Assembly (NCBI GenBank): GCA_963737905.1 | Contig: CAVTUQ010000002.1 | Coordinates: 224,001-288,000 of the forward strand | Origin: an uncultured delta proteobacterium | GTDB lineage: Bacteria; Desulfobacterota; Binatia; UBA9968 | Length of the DNA stretch: 64,000 nt | Reading direction: 5' to 3' | Part shown: positions 3 through 16,592 of the stretch, piece by piece | How positions within the stretch are numbered: position 1 is the first letter of the stretch | Layout: each line of letters starts with the position of its first letter | Translations under genes and position numbers: made by a program | Notes under the pieces: model-generated | What the model saw: only the letters and a program-made list of their open reading frames with translations | Database searches by the model: none | What the model was told of the DNA's origin: nothing

Positions 3-569
3 GTAGACGGTCAGAAGCAAACCGGAATGGTGTTTCAGGAATTCGCTCTGTTTCCCTGGCGCACGGTTCTGGAAAATATCGTCTTTGGTCCGGAAGTGAG
101 AAGCGTGCCAAGAGTCCAGCGCGAAGCCAATGCTCAGAAACTGATCGAGTTAGTTCATCTGCGGGGCTTTGAGCATCGCTACCCGCACGAGCTGTCAGGC
201 GGCATGCGCCAGAGGGTTGCGCTCGCGCGCGCGCTTGCCAACGATCCCGCCATTTTGCTTTTTGACGAACCGCTCGCTTCACTGGATGCCCAGACCCGCA
301 AGGTGCTGCAAGCAGAGCTCGTGCGCATCTGGCAAGAGACCAAACGGACCTTCATCTATGTGACTCATGGCCTGGACGAGGCGGTCCTGCTCGGTGATCG
401 GGTCGTGCTCTTTACCGCTCGGCCTGGCCGCATCAAAGAAATCGTGCCGGTGCGGCTGCCCAGGCCCCGCAGCATTACGGGCCGCGCCGAAGCCGAACTG
501 CTTGAATACCTTTCGGAGCAAATCCGGGAAGAGGTGGAGCGGTCGTTAAAAGCGGAGGGACTGACGTAA
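3..569 (+). CDS. NitT/TauT-family ABC transporter ATP-binding protein (5' truncated by window edge)
   Basis: Q-loop VFQEFALFPW, signature LSGGMRQRVALARAL, Walker B LLFDEP, H-loop YVTH; frame open back to the window start. Confidence 0.93.
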   Translation, partial: VDGQKQTGMVFQEFALFPWRTVLENIVFGPEVRSVPRVQREANAQKLIELVHLRGFEHRYPHELSGGMRQRVALARALANDPAILLFDEPLASLDAQTRKVLQAELVRIWQETKRTFIYVTHGLDEAVLLGDRVVLFTARPGRIKEIVPVRLPRPRSITGRAEAELLEYLSEQIREEVERSLKAEGLT

Positions 570-571
570 GA

Positions 572-699
572 CAGGCCGCTGAAAAAGACTCATATGCTTC
601 GTTGCGCTCGACCGAATTTCGCGTCAACGTACAAAAAGAGTACGCCTCCGCTCATCGATCTTCGCGCGCCTCGCCTCTGAGGACTTTTTGAGCAACCTG
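572..699. repeat. ~128-bp palindromic intergenic element with imperfect terminal inverted repeats (MITE/REP-like)
   Basis: Left end CAGGCCGCTGAAAAAGACTCA; right end reverse-complements to CAGGTTGCTCAAAAAGTCCTCA; non-coding, between ABC ATPase and permease. Confidence 0.6.
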
Positions 700-802
700 C
701 AATTAAATTTTACTAGAGGAATCGGGCAAGACTGGGGTGAAGGGTGAGAACCAACACTCCAATACTCCATCACTCCAACTGTTTCTTAAGCGGGGGTTTT
801 TT

Positions 803-1555
803 ATGTGGAAACGTTACCGGCCGCTCAGGATCATTTCTCCTATCGTTTTCCTTTTGCTCTGGGAGGGCGCGGTGCGGCTGGGCGATGTCAATCAGCTGAT
901 TATCCCCGCGCCGCTCGCGGTTCTTCGCACCATGATCGACCTGACCCTCGACGGCCGCTTGCCTTGGGCCGTCGCTGTGAGTCTCCAGCGGGTGCTTCAA
1001 GGCTTCATCTACGGCTCACTCCTGGGGATTGGTTTAGGACTTCTGGTGGGATGGTTTCGTGCCGTCGAAGATGCTGTCGACCCCCTTGTTGCCGCCATCT
1101 ACCCGATCCCAAAGTCGGCGCTGTTTCCGCTTTTCATTCTCTGGTTCGGCCTGGGCGAAACCTCCAAGGTCATGACCATCATGATCGGCGTCCTGTTTCT
1201 CGTTCTGATCAACACCGTCACCGGAGTGAAAGCCATCGATCCGGTCCTTCTCAAGGCCGCCCGCGACCTGGGCGCGAACCAACGCCAGATCTTCGCCAAA
1301 GTAGTGATTCCGGGAGCCTTACCCAATATCTTCACCGGCCTCAGGCTGGGAGCCGGTACGGCTTTGATTCTGGTTTTCATCACCGAGATCGAAGCCACTA
1401 AGGCGGGACTCGGATTTTTGCTCTGGGAATCTTATCAGTTGCTTTTGGTGAAGCAGGTGTTCAGTTGTACGATCGCCTTCGGCATTCTCGGGATCCTCGG
1501 CACCTGGCTGCTACAGTGGCTCGAGCGCGTGATGTGTCCGTGGAAACGGGCTTAA
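803..1555 (+). CDS. NitT/TauT-family ABC transporter permease
   Basis: Multiple hydrophobic helices, EAA-like loop LKAARDLGANQRQIFAKVVIPGALP; ATG 803 preferred over GTG 737. Confidence 0.92.
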   Translation: MWKRYRPLRIISPIVFLLLWEGAVRLGDVNQLIIPAPLAVLRTMIDLTLDGRLPWAVAVSLQRVLQGFIYGSLLGIGLGLLVGWFRAVEDAVDPLVAAIYPIPKSALFPLFILWFGLGETSKVMTIMIGVLFLVLINTVTGVKAIDPVLLKAARDLGANQRQIFAKVVIPGALPNIFTGLRLGAGTALILVFITEIEATKAGLGFLLWESYQLLLVKQVFSCTIAFGILGILGTWLLQWLERVMCPWKRA

Positions 1556-1765
1556 AAGGTTTCTGGTTTTAGCTTCAGATCGAAACTGGGAACCCGAAAA
1601 CATAAAGCGATTGAGGCAAAAATACATGAACAAAACATTTCGAATTCGGTTTGGTTCGATTGAGCTTTAGCAGTTACCCTGGCCGCTACGCTACGATCAA
1701 GGAAGCTGTTGAGCCAAACCGCGAGAAGGGAGTATGCTTTCTCGTAAAGACGAGGTGAGCGAGCG

Positions 1766-2074
1766 ATGAAGACGAATCATATCAAAGTCGACCTCCCGAA
1801 GGAGAAGATTGCCGACTTCTGCCGTCGTCATCACATCCGCAAGTTGGCGGTGTTTGGCTCGGCGTTGCGCAAGGACTTTCGCCCCGACAGCGACATGGAC
1901 GTCCTGGTGGAGTTCGATCCGGGTCACACACCTGGGCTGGCATTTTTTGGGATGGAGCAGGAGCTTTCCGAACTGCTGGGACGAAAGGTAGACTTGAACA
2001 CACCGCAGTTTCTAAGTCCTTACTTCCGCGACAAGGTGCTTGCAGAGGCGGAGGTGCAGTATGCCGAGCCATGA
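1766..2074 (+). CDS. Minimal nucleotidyltransferase (MNT/MntA-type antitoxin)
   Basis: GS-x10-DxD motif [25 protein letters not shown] motif, 102 aa, overlaps a HEPN gene. Confidence 0.92.
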
Positions 2075-2405
2075 CACTAACGTACGGTTACGTCACATGC
2101 TCGATGCTGCGCGCGAGGCGGCGCAAATGGCGCAGGGCAAGACTCGCGCAGATTTGGATACTGACCGTCCGCTCAACCTTTCGTTGGTGCGGTTGCTGGA
2201 AATCGTCGGCGAAGCAGCGAGCCGTGTCCCGGTTAGTGAGCGCGCACAATACTCTGGCATTCCGTGGGTGCAAATCGTCGGCCTGCGCAACCGACTTATC
2301 CACGGCTACGACAACGTGGACTTCGACATTCTCTGGGAAATCGTCACCCAAGACCTTCCACCACTCATTGCAGAACTGGAGAGGATACTATCGTCGGAGC
2401 CGTAG
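2061..2405 (+). CDS. HEPN/DUF86 ribonuclease toxin (HepT-like)
   Basis: R-x4-H motif [16 protein letters not shown] and IPW motifs; overlaps end of MNT gene. Confidence 0.92.
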
Positions 2406-2477
2406 CCAAAACAACTTCGTCAAATACTAACCCGTCAAAACAAAGCAGCGAGCAGCAAGAAACGCGGAAGAAAAGTT

Positions 2478-3473
2478 ATGAGAAAAAAACTCATTGGTCC
2501 TACGCTTGCCGCCATGCTCTTTGCACTTTGCTCCCCCGCCCAGGCGCAGCAGCCGAAGAAAGTCCCGCGGATAGGGTATCTATCCGAGGTCGAACGCAGC
2601 TACCTGACTCCGCCCGTACCGAGGCAATTCGGCTGGCTCTGCGCGAGCGTGGCTACATAGAAGGACAGAACATCGCCATCGAGTACCGATATGCGGAGGG
2701 AAAGCGCGATCGGCTCCCTGAGCTTGCGGCCGAGCTGGTGCGTCTAAAGGTCGATATCATCGTGGTAGGAGGGGACCCGACGATCCAGGCGGCCAAGAAT
2801 GCAACCAAGACGATTCCCATCGTGATGGCGGGCCGTTGGGTCCGATCCTGTTGAGGCAGGCTTCGTTGAAAGCCTTGCTCGTCCCGGCGGCAACGTCACC
2901 GGCTTCACAACCCTTGACACGGAACTAGGCGGAAAGCGGCTGGAGCTGCTCAAAGAAGTCGTTCCTAAACTTTCCCGTGTCGCGGTTCTCTACGATCCGG
3001 CCAATCCGGGCAGTGTACGCGAGGTAAAAGAGCTTCTCCCAGCCGCGGCGCATGCGCTAGAGTTGACTATTCAGCCTTGGGAGATACGAGCTGCGGACGA
3101 TTTCGAGAAGGTATTTGCTGCGCTAAGCAAGCGGCGCCCGGATGGACTCTTTGTGCCCGCGGGGCGCGGTAATGACTGCTAACCAAAAACGGATTGTAGG
3201 ACTTTGCGTTAAAGAGCCGGCTACCGTCGATATACAGCAGCAGAGCATCTGTAGATGCTGGTGGGCTCATGTCCTACGGCGCGGACCTCGCGGACGGCTA
3301 CCGGCGCGTAGCATATTACGTGGACAAAATCCTGAAGGGAGCCAAGCCCGCCGATCTGCCGGTGGAACAGCCGACGAAGTTTGAGCTGGTGATCAATCTG
3401 AAAACGGCTAAGCAGATCGGCATGACAATCCCGCAGACGTTGCTGGTATCGGGCGGACAAAGTAATCAAATAG
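2478..3473 (+). pseudogene. COG2984-type (ABC_sub_bind) substrate-binding protein, several frameshifts
   Basis: Pieces in different frames: signal peptide..[62 protein letters not shown]; may be sequencing error. Confidence 0.85.
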
Positions 3474-9219: not shown

Positions 9220-9873
9220 CTATGGAAAGATACGGCGATACACGCCCGGAGATCCGGCGGCCATGGTCATAAGTGCGCGCATGCGTCCGGAGCGGGGAGA
9301 GGAATGTTCCCTTTGATGTGACCAATCGGCGCTCTCGGACACCTTATCGTTCACCAGTTCATAGACGGTTGCGAAGCTGCGATCATCTTCTACTGCGCGG
9401 TAGCGCCGCGCATAGATGACGCCGGGGACTTTAAGATACCCGGGGATATACTCGGTATTGTACCACTCGTTCCATTCGGCATCCGCGCTCTCCGGCAAAG
9501 ACATGCGACCGATCTGAAGGGCGGGCGCCATCCCGCGATCGGGATCTTCCAAGGTGCTTGGAAAAATCTGCCGGCCGACGATTCGCGTCACGTTTTTGCC
9601 GGTCACTCGCGGCGACATACGGTTTTCCCAGGGCGTACGTTTGCGTTTGCCGAATTCCGGGCTTCGAATGGCCTCAACACTCGTGAGTTCATAGACGGCC
9701 ATATATTTCGGACCTCCCCGAGTGGCCACATAACGCGCCGCGTCGAGAAAACCCGGTAAAGTCAGCAGTTCTGGCAAATGCTCGGTGTTGTACCAGGCAT
9801 TAAATTCTTCCTCATGCTTTGGATCAATGAGGTCGGTATAGACTAAAAACAATCCCTCTCCCTTTTTTGCCAT
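9220..9873 (-). CDS. Tandem EthD/DUF4286-like dimeric alpha-beta barrel protein
   Basis: Two repeats of E(F/W)N(A/E)WYNTE(H/Y)xP...PG...A(A/R)RY...(A/T)VYEL; ATG at 9873 with GGAGG RBS. Confidence 0.75.
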   Translation of the reverse strand: MAKKGEGLFLVYTDLIDPKHEEEFNAWYNTEHLPELLTLPGFLDAARYVATRGGPKYMAVYELTSVEAIRSPEFGKRKRTPWENRMSPRVTGKNVTRIVGRQIFPSTLEDPDRGMAPALQIGRMSLPESADAEWNEWYNTEYIPGYLKVPGVIYARRYRAVEDDRSFATVYELVNDKVSESADWSHQREHSSPRSGRMRALMTMAAGSPGVYRRIFP

Positions 9874-10139: not shown

Positions 10140-11144
10140 TCAGCCGAACTGTCCGAGGCGCTCGATAACGTTGACGCAGCGGTTGGAATAGCCCCACTCG
10201 TTGTCGTACCAGGAGACCACGCGAGCGTAGCCGTCGCCCTTGGACTGAGTCACCAGCGAATCGAAGATTGACGAGTGCGGGTTGCCAATGATGTCGCTCG
10301 AGACCAGCGGCACCTCGGAGTACTCCAGCACGTTCTTGAGCGGGCCCTCGGCGTTGCGTCTTACCGCCTCGTTGATGGCTTCTTTGTCGGGATGCTTTTC
10401 GAGCTCCACGACGAGATCGACCACCGAGCCGTCGGACACCGGCACGCGTGCCGCGATGCCATCGAGCTTGCCCATGAGCTTGGGCAGCACGACACCCACC
10501 GCTCGGGCGGCGCCGGTGGTGGTCGGGATGATGTTTTCCGCCGCGGCACGGCTGCGCCGGAAGTCTTCGTGGGGCACGTCCGCCAGGCGCTGGTCGTTGG
10601 TATAGGCGTGCACCGTGGTCATGATGCCGTGCTTGATTCCGAAAGAATCGTCGAGCACCTTGGCCAAAGGCGCGAGGCAATTCGTGGTGCACGAGGCGTT
10701 GGACACCAGGCGGTGCTCGGGCTTGAGCTGGTCATCGTTGACGCCCATAACGACCATTTGATCGACATTGTCCTTGGGCGGCACGGTGAGGAGCACGCGC
10801 TTGGCGCCCGCAGCCAGATGCTTCTCGAGATCGGCGCGCGCGGTGAAGATTCCCGTCGACTCGATCACCACGTCGATGCCCAGCTCCTTCCATTTGGCCT
10901 CGGCCGGATTTCTGACGCTGGTCATGAGGATTTTCTTGCCGCCGACGTACAGCGCGTGGTCGTCGTGGGTGACGTCCTGCTTAAGGGTACCCATGATGGT
11001 GTCGTACTTGAGCAGATAGGCCAGCGCTTCGTTCTTGAAGATGTCGTTGATGCAGACCACTTCAATACTCGGATGGTCGCACAGGATACGGAAAACGCTC
11101 CGGCCGATGCGCCCGAAGCCATTGATGGCAACGCGAATGTTCAT
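10140..11144 (-). CDS. gap: Type I glyceraldehyde-3-phosphate dehydrogenase
   Basis: INGFGRIGR, intact catalytic SNASCTTNCL, TTVHAYT, WYDNEWGYS; ATG overlaps upstream stop (ATGA). Confidence 0.95.
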   Translation of the reverse strand: MNIRVAINGFGRIGRSVFRILCDHPSIEVVCINDIFKNEALAYLLKYDTIMGTLKQDVTHDDHALYVGGKKILMTSVRNPAEAKWKELGIDVVIESTGIFTARADLEKHLAAGAKRVLLTVPPKDNVDQMVVMGVNDDQLKPEHRLVSNASCTTNCLAPLAKVLDDSFGIKHGIMTTVHAYTNDQRLADVPHEDFRRSRAAAENIIPTTTGAARAVGVVLPKLMGKLDGIAARVPVSDGSVVDLVVELEKHPDKEAINEAVRRNAEGPLKNVLEYSEVPLVSSDIIGNPHSSIFDSLVTQSKGDGYARVVSWYDNEWGYSNRCVNVIERLGQFG

Positions 11145-12157
11145 TTGAGACCTCCATCGATTTGCGTCATACGCTCGATCAGATCGACGACGCGGTGGGC
11201 GTAGCCCCAGCCGTTGTCGTACCACGCGATGGTCTTCACCATATGCTCACCGAGCATGGTCGTCGCCAGGCTGTCATAGGTGCTCGAGTACGGGCTCATC
11301 TTGACATCGCTCGAAACGATCGGGTCCTGCGCGTACTCAACGTATTTCGCGAATTTGGCGGCGATGCCGGTACGCACGACTTCATTGACCGCTGTCTTGG
11401 TAATGGCCTCTTTGGTAAACATGGTCATGTCGACCAGCGAGCCATTCGGCACCGGCACGTTCAGCGCCATGCCGGTGATCTTGCCCTCGAGATGCGGCAT
11501 CATTTGCTCGAGCACCCGCGCCGCGTTGGTATCGGTGGGAATGATGTTCTCCGAGGCGGCGCGCGAGCGGCGTAAATCACCCGCCGGCACGTCCGCTAGT
11601 CGCTGATCGTTTGTGTAAGCGTGCACGGTAGTAAAAAACATCCGCTCGATGCCGAAGGCGCTGTCGATGATCGAGATGATTGGAGCGGCGCAGTGGGCGG
11701 TGATCGAGCCATTGGAGATGATGCGATGCTCAGCCTTGAGCTGTTTGTCGTTGACCCCCATCACCACGGTGATATCAGGCTCATCGACCGGCGGCACGCA
11801 CAGGATGACGCGTTTGGCACCGGCGTCGAGGTGCTTCTTCAGCTCGGAGCGGCTGCGGTAACGCGCCGTCGCTTCGACCACCACGTCGACACCCAGCTCG
11901 CCCCACTTGACGTCGCCGGGTTCGCGGCCGGAGAGCATCTTCACCTGCCGGCCATACGTGTACAGCGCGCCTTCGCTGACCGATACCACGTCGGGAAAGC
12001 GCCCCATGATCGTGTCGTACTTGACCAAGTACTCCAGGTTCTTGTGATCAGCGACGTCGCTCACCGCCGTTACTTGGATATCGTCCCGCTTATACAGGAT
12101 GCGGAACAAGTTGCGGCCGATGCGGCCGAAGCCCATCAAACCCACCTTTGTAGTCAT
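11141..12157 (-). CDS. GAPDH paralog lacking the catalytic cysteine
   Basis: GLMGFGRIGR, TTVHAYT, WYDNGWGY retained, but active site reads SNGSITAHC; GAGGAG RBS before ATG 12157. Confidence 0.9.
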   Translation of the reverse strand: MTTKVGLMGFGRIGRNLFRILYKRDDIQVTAVSDVADHKNLEYLVKYDTIMGRFPDVVSVSEGALYTYGRQVKMLSGREPGDVKWGELGVDVVVEATARYRSRSELKKHLDAGAKRVILCVPPVDEPDITVVMGVNDKQLKAEHRIISNGSITAHCAAPIISIIDSAFGIERMFFTTVHAYTNDQRLADVPAGDLRRSRAASENIIPTDTNAARVLEQMMPHLEGKITGMALNVPVPNGSLVDMTMFTKEAITKTAVNEVVRTGIAAKFAKYVEYAQDPIVSSDVKMSPYSSTYDSLATTMLGEHMVKTIAWYDNGWGYAHRVVDLIERMTQIDGGLK

Positions 12158-12446: not shown

Positions 12447-13358
12447 TCAATCGGTCGCGCTGCCGCGCATAACGAGTACAGGATCGCCTGAATGGCGCAC
12501 CACCTTCTCAGTAACGCTGCCGAGCCCCCAACGCTTCACCCCTGACCTGCCATGCGTGCACATCGTGATCAGCGGGTTAGGGCTTTTACGCGCATAATCT
12601 ATAATTTCATTCGGACCCAGGCCTTCGATTACGACCGACGATACTGTCTGGACTCCCTCGGCCTTGATCGCTTCAATCCTCTTGTCGAGATAATCTTGGG
12701 CCTGTTCTTTGACACGATTTTTAAGTTCTTCGTAGTTAGGAAGGTAATTCTCCCTTCCATAGTAAGCCGACGCAGGCAAATCATACGCTCTGAATAAAAC
12801 CATTCCAATATTGAACAATCGGGCGAATTTCACTGCGGTCGGCAGGACGGACTCCGCCAGTTCGGAACCGTCGAGTGGAACAATGATAGATCTAAGAACT
12901 GCTTCCCCTTCGGTCGGCGCTTCTTCGTTAGCTCTTACTAAAAGCAACGGGTTGGTTGTAGCACGCAAGACTTTCTCCGCAATGCTCCCTAATAGCCAGC
13001 GGCTCATCCCCGATCGCCCGTGCGTGGCCATGGCGATGAGTGTGGTCTTGTCCGCTGCAGCTTTCTCGATGATCATGTCTTCAGGCCTGCCCCTTTCAAC
13101 TGTGCATCTGACGTTGACATCAGAAAAACTGCTTGCAATCTTTTTCAGGTATTGCTCGCTGCTGCATTCGCCTTCAATGATGACCGTGTCTAGGCGACGA
13201 GCTTTCTCTGCAGCAACATGGCTCGCCATCCCGGCAATATAGAGGACTTCCATGAGCTCCACAGGAATCTGAAAAACCCTTGCCAAGATGCGCCCATAGG
13301 GCAAAACATTTTCTGCCGTTTTCGAACCATCCAGCGGTATCAGCATCCGAGTGTACAT
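12447..13358 (-). CDS. Universal stress protein with two Usp domains
   Basis: Two copies of IxPLDGSxxAExVLP and MxTHGRSGxxRWxLGS(I/V)xEKV. Confidence 0.93.
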   Translation of the reverse strand: MYTRMLIPLDGSKTAENVLPYGRILARVFQIPVELMEVLYIAGMASHVAAEKARRLDTVIIEGECSSEQYLKKIASSFSDVNVRCTVERGRPEDMIIEKAAADKTTLIAMATHGRSGMSRWLLGSIAEKVLRATTNPLLLVRANEEAPTEGEAVLRSIIVPLDGSELAESVLPTAVKFARLFNIGMVLFRAYDLPASAYYGRENYLPNYEELKNRVKEQAQDYLDKRIEAIKAEGVQTVSSVVIEGLGPNEIIDYARKSPNPLITMCTHGRSGVKRWGLGSVTEKVVRHSGDPVLVMRGSATD

Positions 13359-13482
13359 CTTCTCCTCCTCGTGAGTTGTTCCCGCCAAGAACTCTCCCGC
13401 GCGTCAATCGATTCTGACTTTGGCCTTCGCTTCTTCGGTCGTGAGTAATCTTACCTCCAAGATACCGTTTTTGAAACTTCCT

Positions 13483-13707: not shown

Positions 13708-14086
13708 GTCAAACCATCAACCTCTCTCGGTCGTTCTGGACGAAGGCAGTACTTTCTTAACCTGAATGTCAATTAGCGGAAACAATCGCTGAATAACGAA
13801 AAGCTAGCCAAGCCTTTAGATTGCGCTGTCGATGGACCGCAAAATACAAGACCCTCGGAGCGGAGTTAAAGGCAGGTTGCCGCCCCAACCCAACGGCGAT
13901 GACATCGGCGTCTGAACCCGTCAACTGTTTACAGGCGCATTGAGAAAGATACGCAAGATTAGAAAGCACGACCCCATTCAACTTCCCGCAACCATGAGCG
14001 CAACATTGACAGATGAGGAAGCTTAACACCGGTGCTTTTCGCTATTGAAGTTGATAGAACGAAGATTGGCCCGTCCGAGCAGGCAG

Positions 14087-14704
14087 ATGAAACCCGCGCA
14101 CTTCTCCATGCTACGCGCCTATCGTGCCGCCGATTTTTTCACTCTGGCTAACGGCGCGGCGGGAACCGGATCGATTTTCGCCGTCATAAGCTACGTGGAA
14201 GCGCCCGACCGCTGGCGGATCTACCTGGCTCTCTGCTTGGTGCCGCTTGCGCTATTGTTGGACATCGCCGATGGGCGAATCGCCCGGCGGCTGAACGAAC
14301 ATTCGCTCTTTGGCGGCGAGCTCGACTCTCTCGCGGATATCGTGAGCTTCGGCGTAGCGCCCGCGGTGCTCGCCTATGGGTTGGGGATGCGCGGCGGTCT
14401 CGACGTGGCTATCCTGTTGATTTTTGTGGCGTGCGGGATCAGCCGCCTGGCGCGTTATAACATTACCGCCGCCGAGATCGCCGCAGCCGGTGATAAGGTA
14501 AAATATTTTGAGGGAGCGCCGATTCCCTCGAGTTTGCTACTCGTTGCCGTGCTCGCCTTCTGCTTCCATCTGGATCTTGTCGCTGACAACTTTCCGCTTG
14601 GCGTGCTCGAAATCGCGTCCCTCCGCTGGCACCCAATCTCTTTACTTTATCTCGTGAGCGGCTCGGCCATGATCAGCAAGACGCTGCGGATTCCGAAGTT
14701 ATGA
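14087..14704 (+). CDS. pssA: CDP-diacylglycerol--serine O-phosphatidyltransferase-like (CDP-alcohol phosphatidyltransferase), copy 1
   Basis: DIADGRIARR...GGELDSLADIVSFGVAP, SRLARYN, YFEGAPIP; alternative TTG start 14045. Confidence 0.85.
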   Translation: MKPAHFSMLRAYRAADFFTLANGAAGTGSIFAVISYVEAPDRWRIYLALCLVPLALLLDIADGRIARRLNEHSLFGGELDSLADIVSFGVAPAVLAYGLGMRGGLDVAILLIFVACGISRLARYNITAAEIAAAGDKVKYFEGAPIPSSLLLVAVLAFCFHLDLVADNFPLGVLEIASLRWHPISLLYLVSGSAMISKTLRIPKL

Positions 14705-14822
14705 GCTGAGCAGTCAAAACTCGATCACCTGAATCCCGCGACCAGGACATAGGCGCGTGATTCTGAAAGATACGCAAGATTAGGAAGCCCGATCATCCCC
14801 CTGCCTTGATGAACTATGGCCT

Positions 14823-15150
14823 GCTTCAGACGAACTGTCCGAGGCGCTCGATAACCGTTGGAATAGCCCCACTTACTTGATGTCGTCCCGCTTATACAGG
14901 ATGCAGAACAAGTTGCGGCCGATCCGGCCAAAGCCCATCAAACCCACCTTTGTAGTCATTAAGTCCTATGCTTTTTCTTGACCTGTTCGGGTCCCGGTAA
15001 ATTTTTCCGAACTGACTGCCTGGCCGCAGCCGATCGAGGGATTAGTGCCGTCAGCAAGTTTCTAAGAGGATCGCGGGCTTGTAGGGGTGGTAAGATTTTT
15101 CACCAAACCGGCGTCGGACAGAGCAGTTGGACCCGGATCAATTTTCTAAG
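14823..15150 (-). pseudogene. Internally deleted relic of the gap operon, copy 1
   Basis: Matches 10137-10198 (3' end of gap) joined at ~14873 to 12070-12340 (5' end and upstream region of the Cys-less paralog). Confidence 0.9.
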
Positions 15151-15238
15151 TGTTTAAGTGGATTGCTCTCTACCTTAACACCGGTGCTTTTCGCTATTGA
15201 AGTTGATAGAAGGAAGATTGGCCCGTCCGAGCAGGCAA

Positions 15239-15856
15239 ATGAAACCCGCGCACTTCTCCATGCTACGCGCCTATCGTGCCGCCGATTTTTTCACTCTGGC
15301 TAACGGCGCGGCGGGAACCGGATCGATTTTCGCCGTCATAAGCTACGTGGAAGCGCCCGACCGCTGGCGGATCTACCTGGCTCTCTGCTTGGTGCCGCTT
15401 GCGCTATTGTTGGACATCGCCGATGGGCGAATCGCCCGGCGGCTGAACGAACATTCGCTCTTTGGCGGCGAGCTCGACTCTCTCGCGGATATCGTGAGCT
15501 TCGGCGTAGCGCCCGCGGTGCTCGCCTATGGGTTGGGGATGCGCGGCGGTCTCGACGTGGCTATCCTGTTGATTTTTGTGGCGTGCGGGATCAGCCGCCT
15601 GGCGCGTTATAACATTACCGCCGCCGAGATCGCCGCAGCCGGTGATAAGGTAAAATATTTTGAGGGAGCGCCGATTCCCTCGAGTTTGCTACTCGTTGCC
15701 GTGCTCGCCTTCTGCTTCCATCTGGATCTTGTCGCTGACAACTTTCCGCTTGGCGTGCTCGAAATCGCGTCCCTCCGCTGGCACCCAATCTCTTTACTTT
15801 ATCTCGTCAGCGGCTCGGCCATGATCAGCAAGACGCTGCGGATTCCGAAGTTATGA
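15239..15856 (+). CDS. pssA: CDP-alcohol phosphatidyltransferase (PssA-like), copy 2
   Basis: Protein identical to copy 1 from the ATG; alternative TTG start 15197. Confidence 0.85.
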   Translation: MKPAHFSMLRAYRAADFFTLANGAAGTGSIFAVISYVEAPDRWRIYLALCLVPLALLLDIADGRIARRLNEHSLFGGELDSLADIVSFGVAPAVLAYGLGMRGGLDVAILLIFVACGISRLARYNITAAEIAAAGDKVKYFEGAPIPSSLLLVAVLAFCFHLDLVADNFPLGVLEIASLRWHPISLLYLVSGSAMISKTLRIPKL

Positions 15857-15974
15857 GTTGAGCAGTCAAAACACGAGCACCTGAATCCCGCGACCAGGAC
15901 ATAGGCGCGTGATTCTGAAAGATAAGCAAGATTAGGAAGCCCGATCATCCCCCTACCTTGATGAACTATGGCCT

Positions 15975-16249
15975 GCTTCAGACGAACTGTCCGAGGCGCT
16001 CGATAACCGTTGGAATAGCCCCACTTACTTGATGTCGTCCCGCTTGTACAGGATGCGAGAACAAGTTGCGACCGATGCGGCCGAAGCCCATCAAACCCAC
16101 CTTTGTGGTCATTAAGTCCTATGCCTTTTTTTTGGCCTGTTCGGGTCCCAGTAAGTTTTTCTGAACTGACTGCCTGGCCGCAGCCGATCGAGGGATTAGT
16201 GCCGTCAGCAAGTTTCTAATAGGATCGCGGGCTTGTAAGGGGTAATAAG
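15975..16249 (-). pseudogene. Internally deleted relic of the gap operon, copy 2
   Basis: Same junction GAATAGCCCCACT|TACTTGATGTCG as copy 1. Confidence 0.88.
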
Positions 16250-16592
16250 TGGCCGCCCGCGTGAATAACATGACGATGGCGTTAGGAACGTTTGTCCCGA
16301 CGGGAAGCCTCCCTACATTGTGCCACCGCCGTTTGCTTTTCCGGTCAACTAAACATTTCAAGCTTCTACCCAAACTAGGCTTGTCTTCTCTATCCCAGAA
16401 ACCGAAGATTCTCGGCTCAACGTTGGAATTGCCACTTTACTCTAACCTATCATTTTCTCCATATCTGTCATCATGGAAACGTTCGTGCATGGATTGGCGC
16501 TATCGATCGAATTTTAGTTTACCGTGTCGACAGCAGCTATACATGTGCCATGATTGGGTAGGAGCTTCGTTCGAACGGATGGAGGGAATATC

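Follow-up and report, generated by a model that had tools for sequence, protein, structure and literature searches.

A Cysteine-Less Glyceraldehyde-3-Phosphate Dehydrogenase Paralog Encoded in Tandem with a Canonical Enzyme in an Uncultured Member of the Binatia: a Candidate Non-Catalytic Partner Subunit

Results and Discussion

Organization of the gapXY locus

The subject of this work is a pair of genes for proteins in the glyceraldehyde-3-phosphate dehydrogenase (GAPDH) family, named here gapX and gapY, which are carried by a 64,000-nucleotide stretch (hereafter, the window; positions 224,001 to 288,000 of contig CAVTUQ010000002.1, GenBank assembly GCA_963737905.1) of the genome of an uncultured soil bacterium assigned to the Binatia (Desulfobacterota). 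Both genes are located on the minus strand and are arranged head to tail. The upstream gene, gapX (12157..11141; ATG at 12157, stop codon at 11143-11141), encodes a 338-aa GAPDH paralog with isoleucine at the position of Cys149, and the downstream one, gapY (11144..10140; ATG at 11144, stop codon at 10142-10140), encodes a 334-aa canonical type I GAPDH. The start codon of gapY (11144-11142) shares bases with the stop codon of gapX within an ATGA overlap (11144-11141), which confirms the overlap reported in the initial annotation of this DNA. Each gene is preceded by a putative ribosome-binding motif, i.e., GAGGAG (12166-12161) 5' of the gapX ATG and GGAGG (11155-11151), placed within the 3' end of gapX, 6 nt 5' of the gapY ATG. 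A scan for promoters and terminators gave four promoter-like and four terminator-like sites, with 2.5 and 4.9, respectively, expected by chance, and nothing usable.

The gapX and gapY proteins share 50% identity over 333 residues in a gap-free alignment, and both match the Pfam domains Gp_dh_N (PF00044) and Gp_dh_C (PF02800), for which gapX scores 102.2 and 163.8 bits, both above the gathering score. Residue equivalences of gapX were set by alignment to the GAPDH of Geobacillus stearothermophilus (1GD1), which gave an E-value of 3.8e-95 with one single-residue gap in total. Relative to this enzyme, gapX carries four substitutions: Cys149 to Ile (codon ATC, 11704-11702, two changes from TGC), Gly209 to Asn in the phosphate-binding loop (AAC, 11527-11525), Arg231 to Asn at the substrate-phosphate (Ps) site (AAC, 11461-11459), and Glu314 to Gly (GGC, 11212-11210). 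Retained are Asp32, Ser148, Thr150, His176, Thr179, Arg195, Thr208, Tyr311, Asn313, and the NAD-binding motif GFGRIGR. The initial annotation had described a full-length gene with an intact NAD-binding motif and TTVHAYT, an SNGSITAHC active site with an ATC codon two changes away from TGC, an altered TNAA phosphate motif (here seen as IIPTDTNAA), and an S-loop nearly identical to that of its neighbor, and all of these features were found, the S-loops agreeing at 24 of 28 positions. It had overlooked the changes at Arg231 and Glu314. The gapY protein retains both of these residues and carries the SNASCTTNC and IIPTTTGAA motifs.

In the case of TIGR01534 (type I GAPDH; cut-off 367.2), gapY scores above the cut-off (430.3 bits) and gapX below it (340.7 bits); the latter lacks the type I marks Cys149 and Arg231, with His176, GxGxxG, and Asn313 present. 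The gapX protein also falls below the cut-offs of the erythrose-4-phosphate dehydrogenase (E4PDH) models TIGR01532 (293.5; cut-off 530.55) and NF010058 (294.7; cut-off 539) and of the ArsJ-associated GAPDH model NF033735 (276.5; cut-off 450), i.e., it does not reach the cut-off of any NCBIfam GAPDH or E4PDH model.

Distribution of gapX relatives and their linkage to canonical GAPDH genes

A protein search with gapX retrieved 120 clusters with 62-96% identity, and the scan of one genome per species indicated 201 relatives, of which the best 80 loci were examined. An X-type gene was found in 77 of these 80 loci, and the other three (L032, L055, and L059) hold only an ordinary GAPDH with 43-44% identity. 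Of the 77 X loci, 75 carry a gene for a canonical GAPDH (SNASCTTNC, TGAA, and Arg231), hereafter Y, as the next gene downstream in the same orientation; the remaining two (L007 and L040) stop at a contig edge. The initial annotation had proposed a search for tandem pairs in related genomes; in each of the 75 loci with sequence available downstream, the X-type gene precedes a canonical GAPDH gene, and none contains X without an adjoining Y. With the start codons chosen heuristically, the stop codon of X overlaps the start codon of Y in 58 of these 75 loci (spacing of -4 in 11 and -1 in 47), and in the other 17 they are separated by +2 to +51.

The X-Y loci are labelled as originating from Binatia, Desulfobacterales, Thermoanaerobaculia, other Acidobacteriota, Bdellovibrionota, Polyangiaceae, Gammaproteobacteria, and others, and the loci closest to the window pair are labelled Candidatus Binatia. 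Distances between X proteins correlate strongly with those between their Y partners (r=0.92 over 71 pairs; reached by none of 999 permutations), and therefore gapX and gapY travel together, by inheritance or transfer, as a unit. No universal third gene was found beside X-Y, the flanking genes being conserved only within lineages. The gene order is iPGM-X-Y-PGK-FBA (aldolase) in Desulfobacterales and PPDK (pyruvate phosphate dikinase)-X-Y-GlgC in Thermoanaerobaculia, and glycerate kinase, PfkB kinase or amylase genes adjoin other pairs. Among the five complete chromosomes checked, Y is the sole canonical GAPDH in two (Thermoanaerobaculia and Bdellovibrionota), in which X and Y are also the only GAPDH-domain genes above the cut-off; the X protein of the Bdellovibrionota chromosome is Cys-less. 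The three Desulfobacterales chromosomes each carry a further canonical GAPDH copy.

Other arrangements of GAPDH-like sequences were also encountered. Loci L093 (G067:C34) and L096 (G028:C187) hold tandem gap pairs about 50 nt apart, in which Cys149, Arg231, and Glu314 are present in both copies (motif SSASCTTHC beside SNASCTTNC), and therefore the X-Y type does not cover all tandem gap pairs. The best match of the search against representatives was P0123, a 2089-aa protein with four GAPDH-like stretches, in which SNASCTTNC alternates with SAASCTTNA. A search of a protein atlas returned generic GAPDH clusters only.

Selection and expression

Using the Nei-Gojobori method, the ratio of nonsynonymous to synonymous substitution rates (dN/dS) was 0.059-0.088 for gapX in six pairs (the closely related Cys-less, Binatia-type genes of the window, L007, L008, and L009) and 0.040-0.088 for gapY in three pairs (L007 being without Y), dS reaching 1.2-1.9, near saturation, in the furthest pairs. 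The Cys-less gapX is under purifying selection as strong as that acting on gapY. Family-wide, X evolves about as fast as Y, the median ratio of X to Y distances (dX/dY) being 1.12 where both X proteins keep Cys149. Contigs from four soil RNA libraries (three studies) align to both genes with 90-99% identity, and three soil RNA-library contigs bridge the junction at 11141-11144.

It was considered whether gapX may be a decaying duplicate (pseudogene) or a product of a sequencing or assembly error. Two deleted gapXY remnants lie 2.7 and 3.8 kb from the pair (see below), which shows that duplicated gap genes are subject to decay here. Nevertheless, the open, full-length frame, the low dN/dS, the 120 protein clusters similar to gapX, the occurrence of the pair in loci labelled with many phyla, and the same Cys-less state in three related genomes refute this explanation, the probability of which we regard as practically nil. 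This agrees with the initial annotation, according to which the Cys-less state was not a single-base error: it is a conserved gene and no decaying duplicate.

Active-site signature of the X family

Residues at the catalytic positions were counted in 78 X proteins (from the 77 loci and the window) and 76 Y proteins. Arg231, which a review assigns to both the Ps and Pi phosphate sites of GAPDH (PMC12041015), is present in all 76 Y and in none of the 78 X proteins, which have Asn (75) or, in one case each, Lys, Ser or Thr. Gly209, likewise present in every Y, is replaced in 77 of the 78 X by unlike residues (N43, D11, W10, Y4, and also R, H, E, K, S, and A). Position 314 is Gly in all X proteins and Glu in all 72 Y proteins not cut by a contig end, and position 151 is Ala in 74 X and Thr in all Y proteins. 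Altogether, five columns are fixed differently in X and Y, i.e., A42E, T151A, R231N, E314G, and S320A (in the window-protein numbering of the source listing). In contrast to Y, in which Cys149 occurs in 76 of 76 proteins, X proteins have kept this residue in 62 cases and lost it in 16 (V6, I5, G2, S2, and A1). None of the 78 X proteins deviates at the three glycines or the arginine of GxGRxG or at Ser148, Thr150, His176, Tyr311, and Asn313, and the position of Asp32 is always D or E. The Y proteins are canonical at each catalytic position checked.

As the changes at Arg231, Gly209, and Glu314 are near-universal and Cys149 is mostly kept, the signature of the family lies in the lost phosphate sites and the lost Glu314, and not in the nucleophile. 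The missing cysteine, which the initial annotation took as the mark of the paralog, therefore holds for the window protein and has to be replaced by the changes at the three other positions for the family as a whole. Two observations which that annotation had set jointly against its own proposal have also parted, since most orthologs do keep Cys149 and the selection acting on this copy is purifying instead of relaxed. As to position 314, a documented role was sought in papers on the GAPDH "proton relay", in which this residue was not found named.

Phylogeny and history of the catalytic cysteine

A FastTree phylogeny was built from 264 rows. These comprised the 78 X proteins, the 72 Y proteins with a length of 300 aa or more, five additional GAPDHs taken from the loci and the present genome, and those 109 of 150 library representatives that measure 325-352 aa. 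The X proteins, together with 13 more divergent representatives, form one clade with a support of 100, and most of these 13 deeper relatives are also devoid of Cys149 and Arg231. A quick IQ-TREE tree of 98 rows (LG+G4) likewise recovered the X side as one clade (support 99), and gapX of the window falls inside the X clade (support 99-100). By its residues, gene position, and clade, gapX is a member of a family of X-type putative partner paralogs defined in this analysis. In one of the 120 other genomes searched in the phylum of the window (see below), locus L087 (G062:C7) holds a more distant Cys-less paralog (467-1498, plus strand) with SCGSSSVQA, Trp at position 209, and WFDNG, which overlaps a canonical gap gene (1486-2496, plus strand), and therefore the phenomenon reaches deeper branches of the X-like clade.

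On the IQ-TREE tree, at least seven changes between Cys and non-Cys at position 149 are needed among the 78 X rows, and well-supported branches alone force at least six when all 98 rows are counted; the Cys column was left in the tree alignment, in which it is one of 341 columns. The loss of Cys in the X family is thus a repeated secondary event as read from these trees, and the order of losses was phosphate sites first and then, repeatedly, the nucleophile. The window gapX belongs to an eight-row subclade in which Cys149 is present in none, with the codons GGG, GTC, ATC, and ATT at this position. These would fit a path of single-base changes leading from TGC by way of Gly and Val codons to those for Ile. 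It was also checked whether Cys153 could stand in for Cys149 as a general mechanism, and this was ruled out, as the X proteins of L072 and L076, as well as the representative P0124, have a cysteine at neither position.

The conservation of so many catalytic residues leads to the main rival explanation, in which gapX would be an enzyme in its own right whose substrate has changed (e.g., to an aldehyde lacking the C3 phosphate, or with a different NAD-linked reaction), forming its own oligomer and acting in the same pathway as gapY, with the Cys-less lineages, the window included, having secondarily lost or changed this activity. Cys149 is kept in 62 of the 78 X proteins, His176, Ser148, Thr150, and Asn313 are kept in all of them, the uniform Asn in place of Arg231 (75 of 78) resembles a specific requirement more than decay, and the neighbors of the pair are central-carbon enzymes. 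On the other hand, the nucleophile was lost at least seven times while the gene, its coupling, and the purifying selection stayed, position 209 is occupied by many dissimilar residues (N, D, W, Y, R, H, E, and K), which misfits a defined new binding site, X was never found without Y in the 75 judgeable loci, and no NCBIfam model for GAPDH or E4PDH gives gapX a score that reaches its cut-off. Taking both sides together, we consider a changed substrate unlikely.

Predicted association of gapX and gapY

Structure modelling of gapX with gapY gave a score of 0.78, with 0.00 as the best of three controls; 116 of 157 solved complexes and 2 of 215 mismatched pairs attain this mark, counts that apply here only approximately, since alignments made for this analysis were used. 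The runs share at least 98% of contacts, the partner pLDDT is at least 92, and the modelled contact is the large interface typical of GAPDH dimers (residues 172-178, 195-207, 225-247, 279-283, and 295-310). Conservation of the predicted-interface columns is 0.82 in X and 0.84 in Y. In the S-loop, the median identity of X to its own Y is 0.75, compared with a median of 0.64 and a 95th percentile of 0.75 for canonical GAPDHs of equal overall divergence, which may be a modest signal of association, as shared ancestry could also account for it. Two single-member proteins, P0273 (677 aa) and P0274 (673 aa), which contain X followed by Y in one frame, were rejected as a sign of association; the C-terminal WYDNG of X is absent and the linker is odd, so that they look like the result of a frameshift near the overlap and were given no weight.

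On balance, we lean towards the reading in which gapX would serve as a non-catalytic subunit, able to bind NAD(H), and assemble with gapY in a mixed tetramer. According to this proposal, both proteins would be made from one transcript by coupled translation, gapX would bind NAD(H), as suggested by the conserved residues, and it would join gapY through the ordinary GAPDH subunit interfaces, the simplest composition of the mixed tetramer being X2Y2. As a part of the same reading, and with the same slight preference, gapX would be incapable of at least the phosphorylating GAPDH chemistry. The mixed enzyme would then differ in its properties and not in its reaction, e.g., by fixed half-of-sites behavior, altered cooperativity or NAD(H) response, or tolerance to oxidants. 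The heterotetramer subunit suggested in the initial annotation is upheld as far as the interface and NAD-binding residues are kept and the model docks gapX on gapY, and it is weakened by the fact that such a model may reflect likeness only.

Several observations weigh against this proposal. Because GAPDH homotetramers are solved, passing the complex model may show likeness only, and probably any two GAPDH paralogs would pass it. The identity of X and Y at the 46 predicted interface columns (0.57) lies within the range found between Y and unrelated canonical GAPDHs (0.52-0.63), and therefore it does not distinguish a hetero- from a homo-oligomer. RNA libraries can contain DNA, and the contigs bridging the junction are no proof of a single transcript. 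Where both X proteins are Cys-less, the median dX/dY is 1.25, as compared with the value of 1.12 for the Cys-keeping ones, these pairs being not independent. The X gene is present in only 4 of the 25 genomes of the taxonomic family (the one analyzed here, G000, included). Finally, Cys149 in 62 and His176 in all 78 X proteins are kept, in addition to Ser148, Thr150, Thr179, and Thr208, and such conservation of the active site exceeds the need of a purely structural subunit, so that the pocket may still perform some catalysis or bind a ligand.

The same data may be read in terms of constructive neutral evolution, i.e., the X-Y heteromer would be real but without any added function, gapY having become dependent on a non-catalytic copy for assembly or stability after the duplication of a homotetrameric GAPDH, with selection keeping only the interface and the fold. 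The fold, interface, and NAD site are indeed conserved, Gly209 is variable, Cys is dispensable, and the general phenomenon is found in the literature (PMC11066126, PMC10888846). However, X proteins show no variation at His176, Ser148, Thr150, Tyr311, and Asn313, a constraint on the pocket itself is suggested by the uniform Asn231 and Gly314, and the persistence of the pair beside two stand-alone canonical GAPDHs in the genome analyzed (see below) is hard to explain by entrenchment alone. We therefore judge this explanation as distinctly improbable.

GAPDHs are also known to moonlight, and the role of gapX might not involve binding to gapY at all, i.e., it could be a moonlighting nucleic-acid binder or an NAD(H)-sensing regulator that is merely co-regulated with its neighbor. 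The intact NAD-binding residues and the universal stress protein gene located upstream in the window would fit such a role. Against it speak the stop/start overlap in 58 of 75 loci, pointing to matched synthesis, the oligomer-interface columns, which are as conserved in X as in Y, and the lack of any conserved third gene or DNA-binding feature among those seen, which makes it very improbable in our opinion.

The non-catalytic partner subunit may also be given a more far-reaching and clearly tentative form, in which the working GAPDH of a wide range of bacteria would be, in place of the textbook homotetramer, an obligate mixed tetramer in which two of the four sites are NAD(H) sites contributed by gapX and silent for good, gapX being a dedicated regulatory subunit. 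Half-of-sites behavior and cooperativity would be hard-wired in such an enzyme, gapX would sense the NAD+/NADH ratio or a triose-phosphate ligand, and the variable Cys149 would mark the lineages with or without a thiol oxidant switch on the silent subunit.

The gapXY pair in the analyzed genome

The genome from which the window originates is 87% complete, with 6.7% contamination. Besides gapY, it contains two further canonical gap genes (in the regions G000:C30:9832-12162 and G000:C11:60031-62731), each adjoining a gene of the phosphofructokinase family (438-442 aa), and pgk is located elsewhere. One of these loci is also near genes for glycogen phosphorylase, PEP carboxylase, and alpha-amylase. 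The gapXY pair is not the housekeeping GAPDH of this genome. A sample of 120 other genomes of the phylum yielded no close X ortholog (best match 47% identical), which, together with its sparse occurrence within the taxonomic family, indicates that the pair is an accessory unit here.

Directly upstream of gapX, on the minus strand, there is a gene for a tandem-domain universal stress protein (12447-13388), and a DUF4286-like gene (9220-9795) is placed downstream of the pair. Neither of these neighbors is conserved in related loci, and the gene at 9220-9795 is unmatched in L009.

Further upstream, the region 14022-16325 comprises a 1152-bp tandem duplication, whose copies are about 99% alike over 300 nt and each carry, on the plus strand, a gene for a 219-aa CDP-alcohol phosphatidyltransferase (14045-14704 and 15197-15856). 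On the minus strand, two gapXY remnants were distinguished: the first (14822..15120) consists of the gapX upstream region with about 29 initial codons, 88% identical to 12316-12070, and the second (15974..16249), of the same structure, lies within the second copy of the duplication. In both of them, the gapX part (87-88% identical to 12316-12070) runs without a break into the final ~63 nt of gapY. The remnants look like an internally deleted second copy of the operon, which was later duplicated; the alternative is an artefact in the assembly of this metagenome-assembled genome.

Significance and comparison with known systems

Bacterial GAPDH, which is among the best-studied enzymes, is taken as a homotetramer of identical active subunits, and a conserved, selected, and catalytically crippled paralog always co-encoded with a normal GAPDH would be unexpected. 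If the proposed assembly is true, central carbon metabolism would depend, in many uncultured lineages, on a GAPDH built from two kinds of subunit. The pair is moreover a natural series for studying pseudoenzyme evolution. It should be stressed that X genes carry the source label "glyceraldehyde 3-phosphate dehydrogenase", which inflates the counts of functional gap genes. What the window adds is a branch of the family with a polymorphic cysteine and universal phosphate-site changes, an example of an accessory pair that coexists with stand-alone GAPDHs, and the nearby deleted remnants of a second operon copy. In our literature search, from the coverage of which most subscription journals were missing, a GAPDH paralog devoid of Cys or Arg231 and paired with gap was not found described.

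With the type I GAPDH (GapA; EC 1.2.1.12; TIGR01534), gapX shares Pfam domains, length, the NAD motif, His176, the S-loop, and interface regions. It differs in the absence of Cys149, and the X family as a whole in the absence of Arg231, Gly209, and Glu314 and in its constant location 5' of a true GAPDH gene.

The erythrose-4-phosphate dehydrogenase is a GAPDH paralog with altered phosphate sites that performs a different reaction (PMC12041015). As opposed to gapX, which scores below the TIGR01532 cut-off, this enzyme (Epd/GapB of E. coli) retains the catalytic Cys and His and shows no such pairing with gap.

The concept of a duplicated enzyme gene turned into a partner within the oligomer of the same enzyme is represented by non-catalytic paralogs that act as subunits of metabolic enzymes, e.g., those of the mammalian PRPS complex (PMC12238573). 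The PRPS paralogs are similar to gapX in this concept; the family is unrelated and eukaryotic, and the analogy is one of mechanism only.

Among the systems described so far, the nearest is the chloroplast GapA/GapB A2B2 enzyme of land plants, in which two GAPDH paralogs occur in one heterotetramer. Both plant subunits are catalytic, and GapB regulates the enzyme through a C-terminal extension. Entries of the Protein Data Bank such as 2PKQ were among the structure-search matches of gapX. The heterotetrameric nature of the chloroplast enzyme is described in bioRxiv 10.1101/2021.11.21.469434. Unlike GapB, gapX carries no such extension and some catalytic residues are missing from it, and the complex it would form with gapY is a putative one.

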